Source of the DNA: Octopus vulgaris
Taxonomy: Eukaryota
NCBI GenBank assembly: GCA_951406725.2
Contig: OX597819.1
Location: 109,368,001-109,432,000, forward strand
Length of the DNA: 64,000 nt
Direction: 5' to 3'
The translations under genes were made by a program, and so were the position numbers. Shown piece after piece: positions 21,969 to 22,163 of this stretch. The notes under the pieces are model-generated. The model was not told where the DNA came from, did no database searches, and saw only the letters and a list, made by a program, of their open reading frames with translations. Each line of letters opens with the position of its first letter. The stretch's first letter is position 1.

Positions 21969-22163
21969 TATTATATAGAAGGAGTTCTACAGGACTAGAA
22001 CTGTTTCATTCAAGAGAAATCATCAGGAAGCGCTTCCTGATGATTTCTCTTGAATGAAACAGTTCTAGTCCTGTAGAAGCTCCTTCTATATAATAAATTA
22101 ATTTTACTCTGCCATGTATTGAGTACCTTATTTACTGTGGTTAACCCCGAATCAACCCGGGAC
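21969..22163. mobile_element. PLE-type short element forming a head-to-head palindrome of two hammerhead ribozymes
   Basis: 63-bp arms, centre 22031|22032, no spacer, inserted in (TA)n inside a family A SINE. Confidence 0.85.
22032..22080 (+). ncRNA. type I hammerhead ribozyme, intact core
   Basis: gcttc-CTGATGA-t ttc tctt gaa t-GAAA-cag ttctagtc ctg-TA-gaagc; GUA cleavage after 22075. Confidence 0.85.

Follow-up and report, generated by a model that had tools for sequence, protein, structure and literature searches.

The window analyzed here, a 64,000-nucleotide stretch of the Octopus vulgaris genome, contains a palindrome whose two arms, of 63 bp (21969-22031) and 64 bp (22032-22095), meet without a spacer at a symmetry axis at 22031|22032 and, when aligned to each other, form 47 perfect pairs before a 1-nt indel, bearing out the original prediction of arms of about 63 bp with one indel around this axis. 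Among the 18 perfect zero-spacer palindromes with arms of at least 10 bp listed in the window, this is the only one that is not a dinucleotide repeat, and its hairpin fold (-100.3 kcal/mol; z about -20 to -25) was equaled by 0 of 200 shuffles. Element coordinates are given with position 1 at window 22032 (the G of GCTTCC) and position 0 at the A that precedes it in whole copies. The forward arm on the plus strand (22032-22098, positions 1-67) is the hammerhead-bearing end of a pseudo-LTR, and is followed on the same strand by a "tail" (22099-22166, positions ~68-135) that is found in one arm only and, in whole elements, continues into the start of an open reading frame (ORF). The inverted arm on the minus strand (21969-22031, positions 1 to ~64 by arm alignment) ends just short of an internal boundary at about position 67, and gives way to (TA)n. 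At the joint, AAGC|GCTT (22028-22035), both arms stop at the G of element position 1, one base past the A that we infer to be the main start. The structure is flanked by (TA)n target sequence on the left (21930-21968) and on the right (22167-22192). It is a single head-to-head inverted pair with a truncated copy and a tail at one end only, as in the inverted 5' pseudo-LTRs of Penelope-like elements (PLEs), rather than the head-to-tail tandem of a non-LTR retrozyme.

An older sister copy, about 90% identical, lies on the plus strand at ~8947-9080, with an inverted arm covering positions 13-44 and a forward arm starting at about position 20. The original prediction described a copy near 8951-9082 that was also inverted and had lost its core; alignment confirms the inversion, and CUGAUGA is absent from both arms, but given where the arms start (positions ~13 and ~20) the copy was most likely truncated at insertion rather than deprived of its core later. 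(TA)n tracts belonging to a common interspersed repeat, probably an octopus SINE, surround or adjoin both the palindrome and the sister copy (21780-21860 and 22215-22375; 8600-8900). Other features of the window include the 3' half of a U6 snRNA fused directly to (TA)n (8380-8436, minus strand), likely a truncated retrocopy, and a tandem array with a 30-bp period (~56320-57400).

A type I hammerhead motif was read from the sequence on the plus strand (22032-22080), with stem I formed by 22032-22036 and 22076-22080, the core CUGAUGA at 22037-22043, GAAA at 22056-22059, a U.U at the base of a 3-bp stem II, a 4-bp stem III closed by a near-palindromic 8-nt loop, and GUA with a predicted cut after 22075. 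The elements defining a type I core (CUGANGA, GAAA, NUH and an open stem I) are all present, and the main difference between subfamilies falls on the free position N7 (A in 70/85); what it lacks is a stable fold and the canonical stem II of ~4 bp with 10.1-11.1 paired, the stem here having the U.U base and 3 bp. The constrained fold reaches -6.9 kcal/mol vs -8.6 kcal/mol for the free fold, a competing hairpin being 1.7-1.8 kcal/mol more stable than the monomer hammerhead fold; a dimer through loop 3 was modelled, and modelling of a longer stem I for the internal copy found none. The mirror motif on the minus strand (21984-22031) keeps its core and GUA, but is crippled because the indel falls in the 3' strand of its stem I and leaves 3 bp, and its modelled fold reaches only -0.4 kcal/mol. 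In whole copies the sequence reads ...GTTAACT-AGCTTCC, with TA directly upstream of stem I in 69/69 copies keeping upstream sequence, and the native stem I has 6 bp (AGCUUC/GAAGCU) starting at position 0; the window axis therefore lies one base inside the native stem I, since its first pair has been removed in this copy. Thus, of the proposal that hammerheads on both strands are joined exactly at stem I, the presence of CUGAUGA, GAAA and GUA on both strands stands, whereas the joint is displaced by one base into stem I and the minus-strand stem I is broken by the indel.

Rfam returned no hammerhead match for either motif, at gathering or at E<=10, and its matches to miRNA and other hairpin families were all far below gathering and reflect hairpin shape only. 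The putative hammerhead is therefore called from the hand-read motif and from its place within a Penelope-like repeat. A type I motif, a weak stem II and a palindromic loop 3 for dimers are shared with the minimal hammerheads of PLEs and of animal retrozymes (PMC4209133; PMC7229834; bioRxiv 10.64898/2026.07.22.740005). The U.U base of stem II is also found in the axolotl HHR_Amex2, and the available text of that report describes an axolotl hammerhead with this base that cuts weakly, and better as a dimer (PMC7229834). In one subfamily (L185-L187, L139, L141 and L153), loop 3 changes from TTCTAG to TACTAG, and the modelled two-molecule pairing is -15.2 vs -12.8 kcal/mol; this stronger predicted pairing is as expected for a dimeric hammerhead.

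The palindrome is one member of a large family. Across the 2.8-Gb genome, 1390 sites match a 49-nt piece of the tail exactly, and head-to-head intact cores within 30 nt of each other occur at 908 loci (89 with CTGATGA and 819 with CTGAAGA), the exact joint of the window, AAGC|GCTT, being found at 23 loci. Furthermore, in two public runs that belong to separate studies, loose contig ends (19 and 9) reverse direction at position 0, and contigs enter (TA)n at positions 67 and 140, which supports the palindrome structure at the family level. In longer copies, the hammerhead repeat is preceded upstream by ~3 kb of simple sequence and then by an ORF of 713 aa; conversely, the repeat was found ~2.5-3.3 kb downstream of the ORF, on the same strand, in 13/14 ORF places fetched. 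In tandem copies the tail passes directly into the ORF start. By eye, the 713-aa protein contains the motifs IRWR, SDKTKN, CNCHDKTTC, CDLC and CMH, and no CCHH, which agrees with the definition of the Hydra clade of PLEs, namely an RWK-like motif, DKG changed to DKT, a CxCX5C linker, no CCHH, and a terminal CxxC plus CxH (Craig et al., 2021; PMC8557442). Pfam gave no reverse transcriptase or GIY-YIG match in this protein; its neighbours in a protein atlas include clusters with RVT_1/GIY-YIG shares, and BLASTP aligned it to a neighbouring RVT_1/GIY-YIG protein with E=5e-6. The element thus has a single ORF with a reverse transcriptase plus, at the C-terminal end, an endonuclease of the GIY-YIG type, linked to a hammerhead repeat. 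As for its target, 69/70 tails run into TA-type repeats near position 135 and 1/70 into the ORF, in keeping with insertion in (TA)n. Judged by protein motifs and target, the palindrome is a 5' stub of a Hydra-clade PLE inserted in (TA)n, and the proposed origin in a Penelope-like element is supported by the linked ORF and the clade motifs.

Single ORF, RWR/DKT, CxCX5C, a C-terminal endonuclease with CxxC and CxH, a (TA)n target and a hammerhead in the terminal repeat are thus common to the octopus element and the described Hydra-clade PLEs; in contrast, the octopus unit spans ~5.2-5.5 kb with a ~3-kb simple-sequence 3' UTR, while described families are mostly <3 kb, and its hammerhead differs from that of the listed Hydra-1_Obim (PMC8557442). 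A reverse transcriptase/GIY-YIG element beside one of the copies was considered as the parent and rejected, as it has its own terminal repeats and 9/9 other copies run on into DNA that is unrelated. Nor is the family ORF enclosed by the two copy pairs that lie 6 kb apart. The rejected element (L109:259-6790, G000:C1:37.061-37.068 Mb) is a separate, young RVT_1 plus GIY-YIG insertion within the 3' UTR of the palindrome's family; it has an ORF upstream, terminal repeats of 1 kb and a 5' copy in inverted orientation, and ~20 copies of it are identical over 461 aa.

The point of inversion was mapped in the first 100 listed of the 1390 tail-pattern places, all on contig C1, a sample that is blind to the 5' end; 30 loci found with a query that selects complete right arms were left out of the count, and alignment ends near -150 to -170, which mostly fall within a variable T run, were not counted as joints. 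Of the 100 copies selected by their tails, 36 have a forward arm that begins between positions 0 and +7 (21 of them at 0), and none has one beginning at -12 to -1; of the others, 14 start within positions 9-85 (77 nt), 6 at -100 to -13, and 44 extend beyond -100. Adjacent inverted arms end at -2 to +8 in 40 cases out of 51, and their outer ends lie at positions 61-71 in 54/57 of the same 100-copy set. Inversion points are therefore strongly non-random in this sample, as had been required for an origin of the fold-back type. The same boundary is seen in 7 of the 37 copies that continue into the ORF (array loci left out), which also begin at positions 0-3, and the most frequent joint is a perfect AAGCTT axis (16/50 by hand count, in the 50 loci that head the listing). 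Only 3 of 911 palindromes mix the two core variants, compared with ~160 if arms were paired at random; the two arms thus share one source, perhaps a single RNA molecule.

By contrast with stem I, where 908 palindromes join, no enrichment was found at the predicted cleavage site: 21 palindromes join near positions 36-51, at most 12 joints genome-wide fall at the site itself, 9 of them being explained by a 6-7-nt match between the strands of stem I, and no sampled arm ends there (0/100 forward, 0/51 inverted). These figures suggest that the template RNA was uncleaved. In a separate class of loci, head-to-head tandem arrays with 277-, 333- and 271-bp units (L185, G000:C2:64.628-64.632 Mb; L186, C5:37.481-37.489 Mb; and L187, C8:91.475-91.483 Mb, respectively) have in each unit the TATA motif, the hammerhead, the tail and the ORF start, with outer ends at 67 and 140, and are retrozyme-like derivatives that were possibly copied from circles or multimers. 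At another locus (L188:719-1029, G000:C15:44.664 Mb), a short tandem of positions 44/45-169 has a unit that starts at the predicted hammerhead cut site, which is possibly the trace of real cleavage in vivo in this one case. Retrozymes have been argued to derive from pseudo-LTRs (bioRxiv 10.64898/2026.07.22.740005); the window copy is a single head-to-head stub as opposed to their tandem arrays, while the family has retrozyme-like arrays at these other loci.

Upstream of the pivot, TATAAA begins 29 nt before position 0 in 64/69 copies keeping upstream sequence, and each of the three short tandem derivatives retains it. At joints where (TA)n directly adjoins the start, 35/52 loci (hand count) carry a G that is absent from both the target and the element, whose native base is T, and among such loci that keep A0, 23/32 read G-AGCTT (hand count); at a control position 20 nt downstream the extra G occurs in 0/15 (hand count; Fisher p=1.6e-6 vs 35/52). 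Outside the perfect AAGCTT class, the next base in 25/34 palindrome arms reaching position 0 is C, which is complementary to G; since some of these C's can come from the partner arm, this test is weaker. In LINE-1, the additional G at the 5' joints of full-length copies derives from capping (PMC11702581), and by analogy the G found here would be a copied RNA cap. Taken with the TATA motif, this points to an element transcript that is capped and starts at the first base of stem I, as we infer from sequence; the enzyme could also add an untemplated C where it runs off the template, a product that would resemble a copied cap. The base that follows the extra G is T in 7/52 and G in 2/52 loci in place of A, which only 2 copies with native upstream sequence lack, and these T's and G's are possibly due to miscopying of the cap-adjacent nucleotide. 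The window copy has no extra G at its own joint, which may be a blunt join of two position-1 ends or the result of a miscopied first base with cap annealing by GC, two routes that leave indistinguishable products. In the literature searched, most subscription papers lying outside it, we found no report of a cap-derived G or a start-site pivot in Penelope-like elements.

In our preferred reading, which we consider probable, the palindrome was made by two reverse transcriptases that copied the capped 5' end of an uncut RNA and ran off it, their products being joined head to head. The element protein would nick both strands of the (TA)n target; one cDNA would be primed near position 135 and the other near position 67, on opposite target strands; both would run to the cap and off the capped, uncleaved RNA; and the cDNA ends (AGCT or GC, self-complementary) would anneal or be joined. 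The two outer ends (~67 and ~135) would then represent the two priming sites, and the pivot the transcription start. A purified Penelope-like protein, Poseidon PAc, cuts and extends both target strands in vitro, uses uncleaved RNA, hammerhead cleavage being dispensable, and starts reverse transcription at two sites bounding the tail, to which the outer ends of the octopus family (67 and 135) would correspond by analogy; the 5' joint and the inverted repeat are not addressed in the available part of that report (Frangieh et al., 2024; PMC11167929). In LINE-1 twin priming, too, the opposite target strand is used for a second priming, full-length 5' ends carry an extra G and joins are made through microhomology, but LINE-1 cDNAs cover adjacent, mostly non-overlapping RNA, whereas the octopus arms would usually reach the same capped end, giving a palindrome (PMC11702581). 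Counting against the capped-start model, the joint type of the window is unexpectedly enriched in the CTGATGA subfamily (~12/89 vs 11/819, with search patterns that are not identical), which the model leaves unexplained.

The published hypothesis is self-priming (PMC3846280), in which one strand, whether the cDNA or, on the proposal made for rotifer Penelopes, an antisense template, folds back at AGCT and copies itself. The frequency of the perfect AAGCTT axis and the fact that arms nearly always share a core variant would both follow from it; however, a loopless 4-bp palindrome cannot fold back, the pivot and the extra G are also seen at joints without an inverted arm, several loci carry the extra base on both arms (L070 and others), inverted arms stop at ~67 instead of continuing through the tail, and at three loci (L213, L214 and L222) the inverted arms hold positions 0-67 while the forward arms start at 73-84, without them. 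We regard this explanation as unlikely, and of the PLE-style fold-back insertion that had been proposed for this locus, the PLE origin is supported while the fold-back is weakened by inverted arms that contain sequence missing from their forward arms. The coincidence of the pivot with stem I could alternatively mean that the enzyme stalls at the folded hammerhead, or that the CTAG preceding stem I marks the end of an intron, by analogy with D. virilis, whose intron extends up to the 5' end of helix I (PMC4209133); TTCTTGTTAACTAG does resemble a 3' splice site. Nevertheless, 50/100 tail-selected copies cross position 0, three tandem arrays (271-333-bp units) cross it ~13-29 times and invert elsewhere, the joints retain the AG that splicing would remove and have no common upstream exon, and a second hammerhead family is without such a pivot, making stalling or splicing quite improbable.

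Two further explanations concern the palindrome itself. It might be a selected device that acts as a ribozyme switch on two strands or, through its hairpin, provides silencing RNA; the very stable hairpin and the antisense small RNAs yielded by rotifer Penelopes (PMC3846280) could be adduced for this. In a read-through RNA, the modelled 63-bp hairpin would block both predicted ribozymes. Yet the window copy is one of 908 young, near-identical loci, shows no sign of conservation, lacks the promoter-like TATA in its stub and has a broken minus-strand stem I, so that we hold selection for such a role to be very improbable. Two hammerheads in one palindrome are a by-product common to more than 900 loci, and the window locus is an ordinary insertion product rather than a special dual ribozyme. 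Zero-spacer palindromes can also be created by library preparation, but an assembly or library artefact is scarcely credible for arms that differ by an indel and have unequal, family-typical ends, for a joint common to 23 loci, and for a family whose contigs in two other public runs turn back at position 0.

A broader form of the run-off reading, to which we would give even chances, is that a capped sense RNA whose first base is that of its own hammerhead serves as template for two cDNAs, which reach the cap from two priming sites and are joined by the 5' AGCU acting as a splint, such that the 5' strand of the ribozyme would double as a joining device, and that head-to-head pseudo-LTRs in general would be joined run-off products and not self-primed fold-backs. 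The layout with a start at stem I is not universal, since the Drosophila virilis Penelope has a TATA-less promoter and its start lies elsewhere, ~120 nt before the hammerhead (PMC2377424; PMC4209133), with a 75-bp intron following 46 bp after it (PMC2377424). The window also contains, at 41730-41930 on the minus strand (core at 41851), a short TA-targeted repeat bearing a second hammerhead-like motif; a 35-nt piece of this repeat has 910 exact copies, most starting ~70-85 nt upstream of the core. In this second family of the same genome, no stem I pivot was found (0 matches among 910 copies; 0/25 with a nearby inverted core), and when two published Hydra 3' ends were inspected visually, a TATA-like run was seen ~30-38 nt ahead of stem I in one and not in the other. 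Neither set thus extends the pivot beyond the palindrome's family.

Inverted 5' copies, tails and hammerheads in pseudo-LTRs have already been described (PMC8557442), and for rotifer elements a TATA-like motif and palindromes at the junctions have been reported and explained by self-priming on an antisense template (Arkhipova et al., 2013; PMC3846280). The octopus palindromes share with these inverted 5' pseudo-LTRs the head-to-head arrangement, the tail on one arm and the TATA-like motif within the pseudo-LTR (PMC3846280; Craig et al., 2021, Fig. 2), and differ from the rotifer ones, as described in the accessible text, in a pivot that can be placed within a few bases across hundreds of copies and that carries an extra G (PMC3846280). 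Opposite-strand hammerhead pairs are also known from Schistosoma, where they lie 100-700 bp apart (PMC4209133; PMC7229834; bioRxiv 10.64898/2026.07.22.740005). As far as the literature searched shows, inverted pseudo-LTRs were known, and what is new here is the footprint of a cap-like G and a start-site pivot.

How PLEs form their inverted repeats and what role the hammerhead plays are stated open questions (PMC8557442; PMC3846280). Hundreds of young insertions of the octopus family provide a base-level footprint, in which the pivot and both outer ends are fixed and a cap-like G is present, and this family-wide footprint is the valuable part of the present analysis because it makes an open mechanistic question testable. 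The footprint speaks for twin priming on a sense template that is capped and uncleaved, and against the published idea of antisense self-priming (PMC3846280). The capped-run-off model would explain how PLEs make head-to-head repeats, and the more than 900 predicted hairpins that the family has left in the octopus genome may be a source of silencing RNA.
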